From NCBI GenBank assembly GCA_963667255.1, contig OY762940.1:1079503-1143502 (forward strand): a stretch of 64,000 bases of DNA, given 5' to 3'. Each line of letters begins with the position of its first letter. Within the stretch, counting starts at the first letter, position 1. Position numbers and translations under genes: made by a program. The notes below the pieces were generated by a model that ran no database searches, had not been told where the DNA came from, and saw only the letters and a program-made list of their open reading frames with translations. Origin of the DNA: Candidatus Cloacimonadota bacterium. Its GTDB lineage: Bacteria; Cloacimonadota; Cloacimonadia; G963667145. This document shows positions 12,161-63,273 of the stretch, piece by piece.

Positions 12161-12397
12161 AATCTTTACTCTCTTCGAGCAATGAAATTTTGTGTCAATG
12201 AAAATCTGTTTGATGAAATCTTCACTTTTAATTTGACAAAAAATTATTTAATTAAATTAATCGAGCATGTTTCCGAGTTCACTATCTCGTAGCGATTATC
12301 AGAACCGCCGAATACTGAACCGTTAGGGCATAATTGGAAACGATTATACCTCCCGCATTTGGAAAGGAAACAAAACCAAATTAGGGAGGATTTTAGT

Positions 12398-22708: not shown

Positions 22709-22716
22709 TAATTTAA
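22709..22716. repeat. Target-site duplication (left copy) TAATTTAA
   Basis: Identical 8-mer directly abuts the outer ends of both inverted repeats. Confidence 0.65.
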
Positions 22717-22733
22717 GGTTCAAGATAACTTGA
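22717..22733. repeat. IS left terminal inverted repeat GGTTCAAGATAACTTGA
   Basis: Perfect 17-bp reverse complement of 23437-23453. Confidence 0.8.
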
Positions 22734-22763
22734 CAAGTGAATTATACTAGTTAAGTTGTTGAT

Positions 22764-23450
22764 ATGCCAATAAGAAACAAGTACGTAAAAAACTCCAAAA
22801 TTTCTGAAGAAAAATTTAGAGAAATAATTAAGTTTTTTTCTTTGGATATTGAGGCTAGTAAAATAGCACTTTTGACCAAAATTAGTAGAAAAACAGTTAA
22901 CAATTATTTACTTAAAATTAGAGAGAGAATTGCTGAATTTTGTTGTGAGGATTCTCATCTTTCTGGAATAATTGAAGTTGATGAATCTTACTTTGGAGCG
23001 AAAAGAGTTAAGGGGAAACGAGGACGAGGTGCTGGAGGTAAAATTAAAGTTTTCTGATTGCTCAAAAGAGGCGACAAAGTTTACACTCAAATGGTTGATA
23101 ATTGTAGCAGAAAGACATTACAAGCGATAATAAAAGAAAGGATAGAAAAGGGTAGTGAAATTCACTCTGATGGATGGAAAGCTTATAATGGATTGGTTGA
23201 TTTAGGATACCAAAAACACTATAGAGTTGACCATTCGAGCAATGAATTTGCCAATAAAAATGGACATATTAATGGGATTGAGAACTTTTGGGGAATAGCA
23301 AAATTGAGACTAACAAAATTTAAAGGAATTCATAAAAATATGTTCTATTTACACTTAAAAGAATGTGAATTTAGGTTTAATCATAGAAAGCAAAATTTAT
23401 ATAAAATTTTGCTAAAAATGTTCCGAAATAATCCGCTCAAGTTATCTTGA
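22764..23450 (+). pseudogene. IS1595-family (ISXO2-like) DDE transposase interrupted by a single in-frame TGA (23055-23057) at a conserved Gly position
   Basis: Translations ...IIEVDESYFGAKRVKGKRGRGAGGKIKVF*LLKRGDKVYTQ...SEIHSDGWKAYNGL...HYRVDHS...NGIENFWG... match the family pattern ETYFGGKRKGKRGRGA-GK-VFG-LER-G-V; stop replaces the G of VFG. Confidence 0.7.
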
Positions 23451-23453
23451 ACC
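23437..23453. repeat. IS right terminal inverted repeat
   Basis: Reverse complement equals GGTTCAAGATAACTTGA. Confidence 0.8.
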
Positions 23454-23461
23454 TAATTTAA
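23454..23461. repeat. Target-site duplication (right copy) TAATTTAA
   Basis: Identical to 22709-22716. Confidence 0.65.
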
Positions 23462-23537: not shown

Positions 23538-25781
23538 ATGAGTATAGAACAAAGTATAATTTCTAGGCGAGAAAGTGATAAGAAAGTTGAAACCCAACAA
23601 TGGTTTCAAAAACTTATACAAACAAGCGAATATGTTGGTGATTTGTATTCTATCAACTATGAAACCGCAAGAGTAATAATTCATGATTTCTATAGAGAGA
23701 AAGTCGGAGGAATTCCAAGCTTAAGTTTTTTAATTGCCTCAAGAGTTGACCCCAATAATTCAGAAATTGATTTTAAAACAGAGGATGCATCATTTATTCT
23801 TTTAAGAGTAATGGATGCTATAGCGCTTCCGCAGGATAGAGAGGCAGAAAGAATTAGAGTTGAAACAGCACAAAGAATAAGTGGTGAAACTGAAAAAAAT
23901 TGGGATGAAGCAGGTTCAATGGATTTAAGAACAAAAAATCTGTTAAGTTTTGCTGGTGTTCAGTGCAGAATAATTGGAACATTTTATCTCGAAGAAAATG
24001 GAGAAAATGGAGAAGCACCACTTAATTTAAAATTTGGTAGTGATATTTCAAATTATTATCCAAACAGAGGATTAAAAGTTTATAAACCAAACGGGAAGGC
24101 TCTTGAGTTAATAGTAAATTATTCTGATCCTTCAAATATTCAAGCACACATTGAAAAATATGGAAACACAGAAAATGTAAAATTGGGTTTTGTAAGATAT
24201 GCTTCAACAAATAGAAAATATCAACAAATTAGTGATGTCCCTGTTTATATTTATCCAGCAGACCTTCTATCTCAAAAATCTGCCTTGTTTGGAATGACAA
24301 GGACAGGAAAATCCAATACGACTAAAATAATTGCAAAATCTGTTTTTGAATTACGAAATGCACAACGGTCTGGAGAAAATCCATTAAGAATTGGACAAAT
24401 AATTTTTGATCCCAACGGTGAATATGCCAATGAAAATGTTCAAGATAGGGACGGTAGCGGTAATCCAAATGCATTAAAAAATATTTGGCGAAAAGACGAA
24501 ACTTTAAGAAATATTGCTGATAAGCTGAAACAACAATATATTCAAGAAACAGAAATCGAAGAAAAGAAAAGATTATGGAATGAAATAAAATCATTGGTTG
24601 AAACAGAGGTGGTTACATATGGTATTTTACCACATCCACTAGACCCATTTCGTAGATTAATGAAAATAAACTTTTATGAAGAAGACAATCTTCAAATAGG
24701 TAAAGAAATCATTGATTTTAAAATTGCGGAGCAGTCAGCTCAGTATATTAAAAATTTTCGACAAGTTGTTTTCAAAAGACCAGTAGAAGATGAATACGAG
24801 AATGAGGTTGAATTTAATGGACAATTAAGGCGTTTTGAGAGAAGAGTTCTTGTTTATTGTGCATTGCTAAATAAAGCAGGTTTTAATCCACCGTTTCGAA
24901 CAGTTAATATTTCAAGAATGTTTAATGCTGACCTAAGAAATGCTATGATTAACTATTCTGAAAAAAAATTTACACGTAAACAAGGATTAATAAATGCAGC
25001 GGGTCAAACTCTGTCACAAACAAATGTAACCTGGGATAGTCTTGCACCTGCTTTTGAAGGTTTGTTCCATTTCCTTTCAACTGCTGATTACAATACATTC
25101 AACCAAGATTACATAAATAATCATCGTGATGATGAGAATGAGGATGCTACAGGAGAAGGTTGGGCTGAAGCAGAACTTGAAAGTTTGTTGGAAATGTTTA
25201 ATTATTCAAAAGCTATTAATCTAATTGGTGGTGTAAATACACAACATACAACATCAATAAGAACAGATTACGCCGAAGATATTTATAATGATTTAACTGA
25301 AGGGAAACTTGTTATTATTGACCAATCAAGTGGTGAGCCAGAACTAAACAAGTCTTCAGCAAATAGAATAATGTGGCATATTTTTAAAGCTAACCAAAGT
25401 GCATTTCGAGAGGGTGAGAAATTAATTCCCGAAATATTGGTTTATGTGGAGGAAGCTCATAATATATTACCAGCTGGTAATGATTTAGATTTAACCGATG
25501 TTTGGGTTAGGACAGCAAAGGAAGGTTCAAAATATAGAATTGGGATGGTTTACGCAACCCAAGAAGTAAGTAGTATTCAAAGAAATATTTTAAAAAATAC
25601 AGCGAATTGGTTTATAAGCCATTTAAACAATACTGATGAAACCAAAGAACTATGCAAGTACTATGATTTTGAAGACTTTGAGCCATCAATAAGGCGAGCA
25701 CAGGATAAGGGTTTTTTAAGAGTTAAAACTTTAAGCAATCTGTTTGTAATTCCAGTTCAGGTTGACAAATTTGAAGTCTAA
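23538..25781 (+). CDS. HerA/DUF87-like (FtsK-HerA superfamily) ATPase with about 250-aa N-terminal domain of unknown type
   Basis: Walker A GMTRTGKS (about aa 252), Walker B of hhhh-EEAH type ILVYVEEAH (about aa 637), downstream ATQ motif RIGMVYATQEV typical of HerA-family ATPases. Confidence 0.6.
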   Translation: MSIEQSIISRRESDKKVETQQWFQKLIQTSEYVGDLYSINYETARVIIHDFYREKVGGIPSLSFLIASRVDPNNSEIDFKTEDASFILLRVMDAIALPQDREAERIRVETAQRISGETEKNWDEAGSMDLRTKNLLSFAGVQCRIIGTFYLEENGENGEAPLNLKFGSDISNYYPNRGLKVYKPNGKALELIVNYSDPSNIQAHIEKYGNTENVKLGFVRYASTNRKYQQISDVPVYIYPADLLSQKSALFGMTRTGKSNTTKIIAKSVFELRNAQRSGENPLRIGQIIFDPNGEYANENVQDRDGSGNPNALKNIWRKDETLRNIADKLKQQYIQETEIEEKKRLWNEIKSLVETEVVTYGILPHPLDPFRRLMKINFYEEDNLQIGKEIIDFKIAEQSAQYIKNFRQVVFKRPVEDEYENEVEFNGQLRRFERRVLVYCALLNKAGFNPPFRTVNISRMFNADLRNAMINYSEKKFTRKQGLINAAGQTLSQTNVTWDSLAPAFEGLFHFLSTADYNTFNQDYINNHRDDENEDATGEGWAEAELESLLEMFNYSKAINLIGGVNTQHTTSIRTDYAEDIYNDLTEGKLVIIDQSSGEPELNKSSANRIMWHIFKANQSAFREGEKLIPEILVYVEEAHNILPAGNDLDLTDVWVRTAKEGSKYRIGMVYATQEVSSIQRNILKNTANWFISHLNNTDETKELCKYYDFEDFEPSIRRAQDKGFLRVKTLSNLFVIPVQVDKFEV

Positions 25782-25792
25782 ATTGAGTTAAT

Positions 25793-27160
25793 ATGGGGTT
25801 TGAAGGAGAATTTGCCAGTTATGAGCCATTAAGGCGAATGCTTGATAGTGATAAAGTTAAATCACTACAAGACAGACTGAAAATACGAAAACAAGAAGAA
25901 GAAACAGATACTTTCACTGGCTCAATTGTTAAAAAGTCAGACTTGACTGAAAGCTCAATACAACCTGATTTAGTTTTAGCAATTGATGGAAGCAATTTGG
26001 CGGCTAAAGCTGAAAGTGGATTTCCGGGTGCTGAATTTGGATATATTACAATAGCTTCTGTTTTAATAGATTTAAAACTTATTGATGATTTAGAAAAGAA
26101 ACAGTTTATTGACCCCAAAAAGGTTAGAGAAACAGAAAAAGCATCGACAATAGAAAGTGTCTTCCCCGGTTGCAATGTAATTTTGGACACAGAAAAAAAT
26201 GCAAATGCTTCACTTCGAAGAGCATTATTTGAAGAATTAAAATGTAACACAATATTTGCTAACGGTGGAGAAACATTATTGGATACTTATGAATACCTCT
26301 TCAGAATAAAGAGAGAGCATTTCTCTGAAAGCCGTCTTCCAAGAAGCCCTATTGATGGTATTGATAAAGAAATGACTTATGGATACGATGAATATCCTTG
26401 TCCTCATTCAGGAGAGCCATTATATTCAACTGATGCTTTGCGTTTACATGAATTAATGAATCCTGGTGGTAGTAATGGTGAAATGTTTGGGCAAATAATG
26501 TCAACTCTTGAAAAGGTATGGTTGGTTCATATACTCAGAGCATTTGAACAAAAAGAATGGTTATCAACCCTTCGGAGAGTAGCATTTATTATGGATGGAC
26601 CATTAGCTGTATTTAGTACTTCATCTTGGTTGACAAAAGTTATTAATTATGAATTAAATAGGCTAAATGAATTGCAGAAAGCAGTTAACGGTCAGGATTT
26701 ATTAATTATCGGTATTGAAAAATCAGGAACATTCGTAAATCATTTCGAAGAAATTGATACGACTAAAGATGGAGTTACAGATAAATTTCCAAAACAATCA
26801 GCATTACTGCTTGACGATGGCTATATAAAAAGAAATATTATTTTTTCTGAAAGCATAAAACCATATGGTCAAGACACTTATTTTGGAAGAAAAATATTTT
26901 ATAAAACTGCTTCTGGACAAAAAATAGTTCCAGTAATTGCATGTTATAATGACCAACAAAGAAATACCTCAACAGCAAATCCAAATCAATTTTCAAGGCT
27001 TTCAGATGTTATGAATTTGCTTGATAAATTGGTTTCAAGTAGATATCCAAATTCCGTTTCTCCTTTAGTATCTGCTCATGCAGAAGCAGCAATTCCTTTA
27101 AATTTAGGTAAACGGATATTTGAGGATATTGCAAGAGAAATAAGAGAAAAATCAAATTGA
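25793..27160 (+). CDS. NurA-like nuclease
   Basis: N-terminal LVLAIDGS motif, central IIGIEKSG motif, C-terminal His (SAHAEAA) consistent with NurA D-E-D-H layout; 11-nt gap to upstream gene. Confidence 0.5.
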   Translation: MGFEGEFASYEPLRRMLDSDKVKSLQDRLKIRKQEEETDTFTGSIVKKSDLTESSIQPDLVLAIDGSNLAAKAESGFPGAEFGYITIASVLIDLKLIDDLEKKQFIDPKKVRETEKASTIESVFPGCNVILDTEKNANASLRRALFEELKCNTIFANGGETLLDTYEYLFRIKREHFSESRLPRSPIDGIDKEMTYGYDEYPCPHSGEPLYSTDALRLHELMNPGGSNGEMFGQIMSTLEKVWLVHILRAFEQKEWLSTLRRVAFIMDGPLAVFSTSSWLTKVINYELNRLNELQKAVNGQDLLIIGIEKSGTFVNHFEEIDTTKDGVTDKFPKQSALLLDDGYIKRNIIFSESIKPYGQDTYFGRKIFYKTASGQKIVPVIACYNDQQRNTSTANPNQFSRLSDVMNLLDKLVSSRYPNSVSPLVSAHAEAAIPLNLGKRIFEDIAREIREKSN

Positions 27161-28287
27161 TGATTACAAAGGAAAAGATATTAAAAGGTTATAAAACCGC
27201 GGAGGCTCGATGGGCAAGATTTGGTCCATATTATGCCATGTTTCCTTTGGATTTTGCATTTGAGGTTGTTGAGAAATACTCAAAAAAAGGTGATTACATA
27301 CTTGACCCTTTTGCAGGTAGATGTAGCAGTATCTATGCTGGTGGTGTGCTTGGTCGAGTTAGCTTAGGTATTGAAATTAATCCCGTAGGCTGGCTCTTTG
27401 GGAAAGTAAAATTAGAACCTGCAGATAAGGAAGATGTAATTGACCGTTTACTTGAAATTTATGGTAAGCGAAATTATTATAGATGCTCAACTAAAAAATT
27501 ACCAGAATTTTATAGGATATGTTATAGCGATGAAGTCCTAAAATTCCTATTAGCAGCGAGAGCAAATCTTGACTGGATAAATAATGACATTGATGCAACT
27601 CTTATGTCAATTCTTTTGGTTTACTTACATGGTAAATTAGGAGAATGTTTGTCAAATCAAATGAGAATGACAAAGTCAATGGGAATGAACTATTCTGTTG
27701 AATGGTGGAAAAAAAATGGACTAACAAAACCACCTGAAATTAATCCCTTTGAATTCATTCTTAAAAAGATTGAATGGAGATATGAAAAAGGGACACCAAA
27801 TGTTACTGAAAGTGCAGTTGTATTTGGTGATAGTTCTAATCAATTAATCAACATTTCAGAGAGAGCCATTCAAAATGATATTAAATTTTCGCTTCTGTTT
27901 ACATCTCCACCATATTATTCAATCACAGATTACCATGCAGACCAGTGGCTGAGATTATGGCTGTTAGGAGGTTCAGAAAATCCGCAATCATTAAAAGACA
28001 AACATAAAGGAAGATTTGTAAACAAAGTTGATTACTACAATTTACTTGATACTGTATTTGAACTTAGTTCACGAATGATGGACGAAAGGAGTACAATTTA
28101 TGTCAGGACAGACAAGCGTGAATTTACTTTTAATTCTACTTTAGAGATTTTAAACAAGCATTTTCCAAATTATAAAACAAAGATTATTGAAAAGCCTTTA
28201 ACTAAAGACACCAAGACTCAGACAAAATTATTTGGTGACAAATCAATGAAGCCTGGAGAAGTTGATATAATATTACAAATAGAATAA
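27157..28287 (+). CDS. DNA methyltransferase (N6-adenine or N4-cytosine type)
   Basis: AdoMet motif I ILDPFAGRCSS followed by GRVSLGIEINP; catalytic motif IV FTSPPYY about 200 aa downstream; start overlaps upstream stop (ATGA). Confidence 0.6.
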   Translation: MMITKEKILKGYKTAEARWARFGPYYAMFPLDFAFEVVEKYSKKGDYILDPFAGRCSSIYAGGVLGRVSLGIEINPVGWLFGKVKLEPADKEDVIDRLLEIYGKRNYYRCSTKKLPEFYRICYSDEVLKFLLAARANLDWINNDIDATLMSILLVYLHGKLGECLSNQMRMTKSMGMNYSVEWWKKNGLTKPPEINPFEFILKKIEWRYEKGTPNVTESAVVFGDSSNQLINISERAIQNDIKFSLLFTSPPYYSITDYHADQWLRLWLLGGSENPQSLKDKHKGRFVNKVDYYNLLDTVFELSSRMMDERSTIYVRTDKREFTFNSTLEILNKHFPNYKTKIIEKPLTKDTKTQTKLFGDKSMKPGEVDIILQIE

Positions 28288-31450: not shown

Positions 31451-31540
31451 TGGCGGAGATGTAGGGATTCGAACCCTAGATACAGGTAACCGTATACACG
31501 CTTTCCAAGCGTGCTCCTTCAACCACTCGGACACATCTCC
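31451..31540 (-). tRNA. tRNA-Ser (anticodon GGA), with encoded CCA
   Basis: Manual fold: acceptor GGAGATG/CATCTCC, anticodon stem CACGC/GCGTG with loop TTGGAAA, long variable arm, TTCGAAT T-loop. Confidence 0.85.
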
Positions 31541-31958: not shown

Positions 31959-32035
31959 TGGCACGCCCGTAGGGATTCGAACCCCAAACCTTCTGATCCG
32001 TAGTCAGATGCTCTATCCAATTGAGCCACGGGCGC
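31959..32035 (-). tRNA. tRNA-Arg (anticodon ACG), with encoded CCA
   Basis: Manual fold: acceptor GCGCCCG, anticodon stem TCTGA/TCAGA with loop CTACGGA, GGTTCGAAT T-loop. Confidence 0.85.
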
Positions 32036-37962: not shown

Positions 37963-38225
37963 CGAGTTCCGATAATAAGGTTCCTGTACAACTTAATATT
38001 TTTGGCATTTCTTACAAATTTATGGTGGATGCAGGGAGTGAAGACAAATTTAAAATTTGTGCAGAAAAATTAAATAAACTGATAAGTCAAGAAAGTGCGA
38101 AGAGGGGAGACGCGATGTCTCAAATCAAGATTTTAGTTTTGCTTTGCTTGGATTTTTTGTCTAATCAGATAGATAGTGAAGAAGTGATTATCAGAATAGA
38201 AAATTTATTAGATAAAAGCCTGTAA
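37959..38225 (+). CDS. zapA: Cell division protein ZapA-like
   Basis: PVQLNIFGISYKF N-terminal motif and about 88-aa helical tail. Confidence 0.55.
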   Translation: MTSSDNKVPVQLNIFGISYKFMVDAGSEDKFKICAEKLNKLISQESAKRGDAMSQIKILVLLCLDFLSNQIDSEEVIIRIENLLDKSL

Positions 38226-38414
38226 TATTTGTGATAGTTGGCTAATTATATCATTTGAACTAATTATAATTAGGGATGTAAGCTTCTACTTTTGGCTTGT
38301 GCCGAGATTGTACTCGGATTTGCGAAGTAGGTTTAGATGAATATCCCACCTTGAATTTAAGTTCAAGATAAGCTTAGCTACACGGTATTATGGGTTTTTG
38401 TTTTTTTTAAGGAG

Positions 38415-62827: not shown

Positions 62828-63248
62828 GAGGAGAGGATAACATCTCTGCCGAAGTCGATTTTGTTGGCTTCGAAGGAAAGTCCGAACACCGCAGAGCAGA
62901 TTGCTTCTTAATACGGAAGTCTTGGCAACAAGGAATAATCCAACAGAAAGATACTCCAAGCACCTATTTTAGCTTTCAAATTTGTAGAAAATAGGTATAT
63001 TAAAAAGGCTAAAATAGGTGCTTGATAAGGTGAAATGGTGGTGTAAGAGATCACCGGCACGGAGCGTGAGCCTCGTGGACAGGGAGTTTCAATCGGTGCA
63101 ATGCCAAATAGGGGACTGATAGGTTGCTCGCCTTGCTAAGGTCTCGGGTAGGCAGCAAGAGTCGGTTAGTGATAATCGACCGAGATAAATAGAGATAGTT
63201 TGGCTGTTTAGTAGGTCAAAGACAGAATTCGGCTTAATATCTTCTCCT
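62828..63248 (+). ncRNA. rnpB: RNase P RNA (bacterial type A)
   Basis: Conserved blocks GGAAAGTCCGAACACCGCAGAGCAG, GGTGAAATGGTGGTGTAAGAGATCACC, GGGTAGGCAGCAAGAG and 3' ACAGAATTCGGCTTAAT; 10-bp P1 helix aggagaggat/atcttctcct. Confidence 0.8.
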
Positions 63249-63273
63249 TAAAATAATCAAAAGAATGTTGTTA

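Follow-up and report, generated by a model that had tools for sequence, protein, structure and literature searches.

A NurA-family nuclease as the probable effector of a mobile HerA-NurA-methyltransferase cassette

In the study of the TdpABC system, TdpA is said to be a hexameric translocase and TdpB a dimeric nuclease that is blocked by phosphorothioate (PT) in self DNA. TdpABC, found in thermophiles, is cited as a third PT-based restriction-modification (R-M) system, with TdpC as the sole enzyme that makes the mark (PMC12914056; An et al. 2025 Nat Chem Biol, as cited there). Its restriction module is TdpAB (PDB 8wet/8wfd). HerA and NurA of archaea and Deinococcus form 6:2 complexes that need ATP to cleave double-stranded DNA (dsDNA). 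Hydrolysing ATP, the HerA ring feeds dsDNA to NurA sites that are specific for single-stranded DNA, and when substrate binds, a helix-bundle domain of HerA at the DNA entrance is rearranged (PMC12977600, PMC9960219). Bacterial HerA-NurA pairs have already been published, as has TdpAB. Here we describe a NurA-family gene at positions 25793..27160 of a 64,000-nucleotide stretch of a Candidatus Cloacimonadota genome (assembly GCA_963667255.1, contig OY762940.1, positions 1,079,503 to 1,143,502 of the forward strand); this whole stretch is called the window, and all coordinates refer to it. The gene lies between a HerA gene and a DNA methyltransferase (MTase) gene, and TdpAB is the closest characterised counterpart of its HerA and NurA.

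The NurA gene is an uninterrupted, ATG-started open reading frame (ORF) of 455 amino acids (aa) on the + strand, exactly as an earlier note on this DNA had placed it, and it encodes the predicted nuclease effector of the locus. The protein matched the Pfam NurA profile (PF09376) over model positions 2-254 of 254 with 110.1 bits against a curated cutoff of 21 (E 1.7e-31). This profile had been proposed in the earlier note as a check of its NurA-like assignment, which the Pfam and fold searches supported: the protein is of the NurA family, with an RNase H-like/PIWI-like fold. Among the candidates scored from a set of 5.8 billion proteins, 1845 homologues were found at E <= 0.001, and an exhaustive HMMER scan gave 627 clusters for the family at 50% identity. 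The ATG and the reading frame are kept in 34 full-length orthologues, and the ORF is far beyond chance. The homology is already caught by routine annotation, and homologues are named 'DNA double-strand break repair nuclease NurA' by NCBI. Neither the protein itself nor two family profiles found a NurA structure at significance when used as queries in sequence searches of the PDB, and the protein had no match in NCBIfam. An antisense ORF inside the gene (25819-26250, - strand, 143 codons, GTG start) most likely arose by chance in this AT-rich DNA.

The structure of the protein was predicted with AlphaFold. A first model, built on a shallow alignment of close homologues, had a predicted local distance difference test (pLDDT) score of 62; Foldseek found nothing significant with it and it was discarded. 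The second model was built on an alignment of 35 homologues at 24-74% identity and was confident (pLDDT 93.1, predicted template modelling score 0.91). When it was searched against the PDB with Foldseek, eight matches were obtained at E <= 0.001, every one NurA-type, with chains of TdpB, D. radiodurans NurA (DrNurA), T. maritima TM1739 and the NurA proteins of S. solfataricus (SsoNurA), T. kodakarensis (TkNurA) and P. furiosus (PfNurA). TdpB was the top match in both fold searches. In the fold comparison it scored 18.9, followed by SsoNurA with 15.1, DrNurA with 12.9, TM1739 with 12.1 and TkNurA with 9.3, while PIWI domains and endonuclease V reached 8-9 and RNase H 4-5. This is the order that a protein of the NurA clade, within the RNase H-like superfamily, should give, and the model predicts an RNase H-like/PIWI-like fold that can be superposed on solved NurA structures. 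The predicted fold agrees with the nuclease that the earlier note had proposed. The NurA profile also aligned weakly (E 2.2, not significant) but collinearly with TdpB at four motifs, namely an N-terminal MPYxGE, a first DG, a second DG and an AH.

Between strand beta3 and helix A the model has an insert (26340-26450, about aa 183-220). Distant homologues carry a CPxxxC...CxC pattern there, which is probably a zinc ribbon. The window protein retains one Cys of the pattern (C203), and beside the insert it keeps a YSTDxLRxHE motif with an invariant D214.

The active site was compared with those of solved NurA proteins. In PfNurA, Mn2+ is bound by D51 on strand S1 and D126 on strand S4, the Glu is E105 in helix H3, which precedes S4, and a second metal is bound by H411 close to the C-terminus; the set in TmNurA is D49/E140/D157/E280 (PMC3300031). 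Residue conservation was counted over the 35 homologues, down to 24% identity. The motifs AIDGS (residues 63-67), IEKSG (308-312) and SAHAEA (427-432), which had been pointed out in the earlier note, are present. D65 of AIDGS (codon 25985..25987; this and the following codons are on the + strand) is the predicted metal-binding catalytic Asp. It lies on strand beta1 (60-72), is invariant (35/35), matches the position of PfNurA D51 on strand S1 and aligns with the DG motif of TdpB. The predicted second catalytic Asp, D268 of FIMDGPLA (codon 26594..26596), stands at the end of beta4 (263-268) and is likewise found in 35/35 homologues, as is G269 next to it; D126 on S4 is the PfNurA counterpart of D268, which in the TdpB alignment falls on FIKDGRLA. 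H429 of SAHAEA (codon 27077..27079), the predicted second-metal ligand in the role of PfNurA H411, falls in the C-terminal helix 423-432 of the model and aligns with the AH of TdpB; the residue is H in 30/35 homologues and N in 5/35. In the model, the two metal-binding Asp of the NurA family thus appear to be in place on strands 1 and 4, as does its C-terminal His.

The catalytic Glu was assigned from topology. E240 (codon 26510..26512), the predicted residue, lies in helix 229-253 before beta4 and is E in 33/35 homologues and Q in 2/35. The EKSG motif places E309 and K310 (codons 26717..26722, with E309 at 26717-26719) at the end of strand beta5 in the model, and E309 is kept in 31/35 and K310 in 35/35 homologues. 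D214 (35/35) and R142 are invariant as well. We prefer E240 over E309 because its topology and spacing fit the Glu of PfNurA, on the helix before strand 4, and that of TmNurA, which precedes D157, and because of its conservation, which makes D65-E240-D268-H429 the more likely catalytic set. E309 is conserved yet probably off the canonical Glu position; it may, like D214, be an alternative to E240. Of the D-E-D-H pattern drawn in the earlier note, the first Asp and the His were retained, its EKSG Glu gave way to the more likely E240, and D268 was added as the second Asp, which the note had left unnamed.

Directly upstream of NurA lies a gene for a HerA/FtsK-family ATPase of 747 aa (23538..25781, + strand; Pfam DUF87/HerA central domain, E 2.4e-12), the predicted hexameric DNA translocase partner. 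Its ATPase motifs are intact, with ALFGMTRTGKSNT as Walker A (aa 246-258, containing GMTRTGKS) and VYVEEAH as Walker B (aa 635-641), and they are at least 95% conserved in 40 homologues. In the PDB the protein matched TdpA best by sequence (8wet, E 2.3e-14), and the chains of Sir2-HerA, DUF4297-HerA and archaeal HerA followed at a clear distance. Twelve PADLOC models matched, eleven of them HerA models, and NCBIfam HerA models matched with scores below their cutoffs. The HerA stop is found 11 nucleotides (nt) before the NurA ATG. The HerA-like partner that the earlier note had proposed from gene order and spacing is supported by Pfam, by the TdpA match and by the adjacency in related loci, and the operon is conserved and tightly spaced. 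The same note had called the two genes translationally linked; the spacing is indeed tight, but there is no overlap, and the true overlap of stop and start is the one between NurA and the methyltransferase.

The middle region of HerA between Walker A and Walker B (aa 304-577; 24447..25268, + strand) is hypervariable. Among close cassettes it has 31-34% identity, compared with 85-95% in the rest of the same protein, and the DNA similarity to most related loci is interrupted from 24447 to about 25266. The alleles fall into four groups or more, and that of the window is common only to two other loci (L017 and L032). By its location the region would correspond to the helix-bundle insert of archaeal HerA.

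Downstream, the NurA stop and the ATG of the DNA methyltransferase share one base, as read from the sequence TGATG at 27158..27162 (+ strand). The methyltransferase (27160..28287, + strand) has 375 aa, matched Pfam N6_N4_Mtase (E 8.7e-11) and the PADLOC Type II MTase models, and is the predicted self-marking module. Motif I (DPFAGR, at about aa 50) precedes motif IV (TSPPY, at about aa 250), an order that the alignment showed to be reversed (permuted) relative to the beta-class enzyme 2zie. Both motifs are at least 95% conserved in 41 homologues. We presume that the SPPY form of motif IV hints at N4-cytosine specificity.

The conservation of the locus was followed in a scan of one genome per species, which gave 38 related loci with a NurA relative at 59-94% identity. 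The methyltransferase was directly downstream of NurA in 38/38 of these loci and HerA directly upstream in 37/38; the remaining locus (L036) begins inside the NurA gene. The HerA-NurA pairing seen in the earlier note was therefore correct, but the conserved unit is not the pair alone: it comprises three genes including the methyltransferase. Hosts of the cassette are Bacteroidota, Cloacimonadota, Ignavibacteria, candidate phyla radiation bacteria and Caldisericales, and further Alteromonas, Campylobacterota, Treponema and Parabeggiatoa, and Acinetobacter NurA homologues at 77-78% identity were among the protein matches. NurA identity reaches 94% between different phyla, and none of the 38 loci has the flanking genes of the window. 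Nucleotide similarity to these loci sets in at the HerA ATG (23538) or no more than 21 nt before it, and in almost all of them it is lost within a few bases of the stop codon of the methylase (28287). The cassette so delimited (23538-28287, about 4.75 kb) has a GC content of 32.7% compared with about 40% in the flanks, and the pairwise-identity matrices of HerA, NurA and the methyltransferase correlate with each other (Mantel r 0.89-0.96). The sharp boundaries, the low GC and the correlated matrices show that three ORFs make up the minimal unit and that they are transferred horizontally in one piece.

We conclude that HerA-NurA-MTase is a self-contained, horizontally mobile three-gene cassette in mesophilic bacteria. 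The earlier note had cast the nuclease as an archaeal/thermophile end-resection enzyme, which fits poorly with a cassette that is mobile in mesophiles and nearer to TdpAB than to the archaeal repair operon. The conserved unit of three ORFs contains no integrase, relaxase, replication or capsid gene. Repeat and terminator scans of 22.5-28.5 kb found no terminal repeats bounding the cassette, and the only clear repeats there flank a neighbouring insertion sequence (IS). In three loci (L024, L030 and L038) the NurA frame breaks off after about 315-336 codons while the rest of the cassette is intact; the shortened frames are pseudogenes or else errors of assembly.

Nine more distant contexts, at 24-43% NurA identity, were examined, and a methylase was found beside HerA-NurA in 7/9. 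The six MTase-carrying relatives outside phages have 25-43% identity. On a plasmid of the archaeon Halorarius the order is DUF87-NurA-methyltransferase and four metagenomic contigs have the same HerA-NurA-methyltransferase order, whereas in the Deferribacter megaplasmid pDF308 the methyltransferase comes first, then a HerA disrupted by an IS, and then NurA. In three of the distant cassettes (L042, L047 and L049) the NurA and methyltransferase genes overlap by four bases. In the temperate Vibrio phage L051 (PQ189353, 1309-5751), HerA is split and lies together with a NurA-like gene and the gene of a D12-class (Dam-like) methylase between integrase and excisionase. This methylase is encoded on the opposite strand, belongs to a different Pfam family and is non-homologous to the methyltransferase of the window. 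The different gene order and the substitution by a non-homologous methylase both speak for a functional and not an accidental link between HerA-NurA and methylation. On the Tolypothrix plasmid L039 (NZ_CP050441, 4937-11326), the gene after HerA-NurA encodes a protein of 816 aa in which an RNase T-type exonuclease is fused to a STAND/AAA NTPase; this may be another way to arm or regulate the HerA-NurA module.

The cassette resembles TdpABC in its TdpA-like HerA, the best sequence match, and its TdpB-like NurA, the top fold match, but its third gene encodes an N6_N4 methyltransferase and not the phosphorothioation enzyme TdpC; no PT-synthesis domain was detected in the neighbouring ORFs that were scanned. 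Identity to the archaeal and Deinococcus HerA-NurA proteins (PDB 2ygk, 3tal/3taz, 7f6d, 9x1l) is 12-16%. In contrast to these, the window cassette is mobile, has a methylase and is not linked to Mre11/Rad50, its NurA carries an extra insert and an N-terminal peptide, and its role would be defence rather than repair. With Sir2-HerA and DUF4297-HerA it shares a HerA-family hexameric ATPase, an enzymatic effector and horizontal mobility, but here the effector is NurA, which matched neither a Sir2 nor a DUF4297 model, and the cassette includes a methyltransferase that those systems do not have. Type I/III R-M systems likewise combine a methyltransferase, an ATP-driven translocase and a nuclease in one horizontally transferred operon. 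Their motor is an SF2 helicase and their nuclease a PD-(D/E)xK enzyme, whereas the motor here is an FtsK/HerA ring, the nuclease an RNase H-like NurA, and a separate specificity subunit is not present. With classical R-M the methyltransferase motifs I and IV are shared, and the nuclease has none of the known restriction endonuclease folds (PD-(D/E)xK, HNH, GIY-YIG, PLD). MADS was also considered and rejected. The matches of HerA to mad8 and of the neighbouring ABC transporter to mad3 reflect P-loop similarity of a generic kind, and no mad model was matched by any of the seven further neighbouring proteins that were scanned with PADLOC.

Given the families and folds of the three proteins, the intact motifs, the co-inheritance and the mobility, we consider it likely that NurA, as a metal-dependent DNA nuclease, is the effector of a mobile HerA-NurA-MTase cassette for R-M-like defence, with methylation in place of the phosphorothioate mark of Tdp. 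We infer for this system a 6:2 complex, nuclease activity, a defence function and protection by methylation. By homology with the solved HerA-NurA and TdpAB structures, a NurA dimer would cap the HerA hexamer. Driven by ATP, the ring would pull duplex DNA through to both active sites of the NurA dimer (D65, E240, D268, H429), where it would be shredded processively. The co-translated methyltransferase would mark the host genome, leaving only unmarked incoming DNA, such as that of a phage or plasmid, to be degraded. The methyl mark might be read by the methyltransferase in the role of a specificity subunit, in keeping with its translational coupling to NurA, or by the hypervariable HerA insert. 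Alternatively, the insert may reflect an arms race with phage inhibitors or triggers. A matched specificity pair of the HerA insert and the variable region of the methylase was considered and is not supported, since the methylase region is not hypervariable and the covariation of the two (r 0.58) is weaker than that of the conserved parts. On a more tentative level, and with a little less than an even chance, HerA-NurA-MTase would be a widespread, unclassified R-M class in which a ring motor and an RNase H-fold nuclease destroy unmethylated DNA and the HerA insert serves as mark reader or as target of phage inhibitors. Together with TdpABC it would then form a group of 'ring-translocase restriction modules', coupled to phosphorothioate, N4/N6 or Dam-type methylation.

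Several observations weigh against a methylation-guided defence cassette. The neighbours of the cassette are housekeeping genes and not a defence island, and an IS1595-like element at the position of the native promoter makes the expression of the cassette in this genome uncertain. Among the distant contexts a methylase is missing from 2/9, namely the Tolypothrix plasmid and the sediment contig P0184. The sequence similarity between NurA and TdpB is not significant (E 2.2), and the link between them rests on the fold. In PADLOC 2023 the NurA protein had a marginal match only, to the unrelated LmuB ATPase model, and it had no match in PHROGs. Specificity domains are hypervariable in many R-M systems, and the variable region of this methyltransferase, at 72% mean identity, is not. 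Finally, a ring translocase contacts the phosphate backbone, and the mark would be a methyl group on a base.

Three other explanations were weighed against R-M-like defence. HerA ATPases scaffold effector enzymes in anti-phage systems (PMC11291478, PMC11472057, PMC11514289), and the cassette might accordingly be an abortive-infection (Abi) or toxin system of the Sir2-HerA or DUF4297-HerA type, in which HerA senses infection and NurA attacks all DNA including that of the host, the methylase being regulatory or anti-restriction. The window HerA matches the same PADLOC and NCBIfam HerA models, its hypervariable insert could sense phage proteins, and the relatives without a methylase would also fit. 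We nevertheless regard an Abi system as unlikely, as the near-universal, co-evolving methylase, replaced in one case by a non-homologous one, points to an epigenetic mark of self and non-self, and the closest solved pair, TdpAB, belongs to a modification-dependent restriction system. Less likely again is housekeeping resection of double-strand-break ends that yields 3' tails for recombination, with the methylase an unrelated or orphan gene. It has in its favour the NCBI naming as a repair NurA, the fold and motifs of repair enzymes, and D. radiodurans, where NurA-HerA resects ends and affects survival after DNA damage (PMC9960219). However, no Mre11/Rad50 (SbcCD) or other repair gene was linked to the cassette among the neighbouring ORFs scanned, and TdpB, a restriction nuclease, is structurally closer than any repair NurA. 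The patchy distribution with up to 94% identity across phyla and unrelated flanks is the pattern of a mobile accessory unit and not of a housekeeping gene, the GC content of the cassette is below that of its surroundings, and the methylase is inherited with it in every one of the 38 loci and swapped for another family in the accessory slot between integrase and excisionase (int-xis) of a prophage.

This slot also bears on the last explanation, that the cassette serves the DNA pumping, processing or packaging of a mobile element itself and not host defence. FtsK/HerA ATPases pump DNA in conjugation and virus packaging, HerA weakly matched a PHROG annotated as terminase large subunit (1.1e-08), and relatives are found on plasmids and in a prophage. 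Yet the Vibrio prophage cassette in its int-xis slot lies away from the packaging genes, NurA has no PHROG counterpart, and the conserved unit consists of three ORFs only, with similarity stopping at the ORF boundaries. A role in element-borne DNA pumping or packaging is thus very improbable.

In the window the cassette is surrounded by an ABC transporter gene, an IS1595 remnant, ThiF and PFK. The IS1595-like element (22716-23454) lies directly upstream of HerA and has perfect 18-nt inverted repeats at 22716-22733 and 23437-23454. Its transposase is read from two ORFs (22764-23057 and 23058-23450) that share one frame and have a single in-frame stop between them. Rfam searches gave matches above the gathering score to a Moco/tungsten riboswitch (12259-12385), two tRNAs (31454-31540 and 31962-32035), a 6S RNA (38214-38400) and a bacterial RNase P class A (62830-63251), which identify the window as ordinary chromosomal DNA.

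A full-text literature search, which covered few subscription journals, found no description of HerA-NurA-methyltransferase as an R-M-like system. The cassette is compact, with three genes and sharp boundaries, and can be cloned and tested directly. If R-M-like defence is its function, HerA-NurA would not be a repair device only but a processive 'shredder' that can be reused, coupled to different DNA marks in bacteria, archaea and prophages. The mechanism of TdpAB would then extend from the rare phosphorothioation of thermophiles to methylation in mesophiles such as Acinetobacter, Flavobacterium and Bacteroidales, and it would raise the question of how a ring translocase that grips the DNA backbone senses a methyl group on a base.

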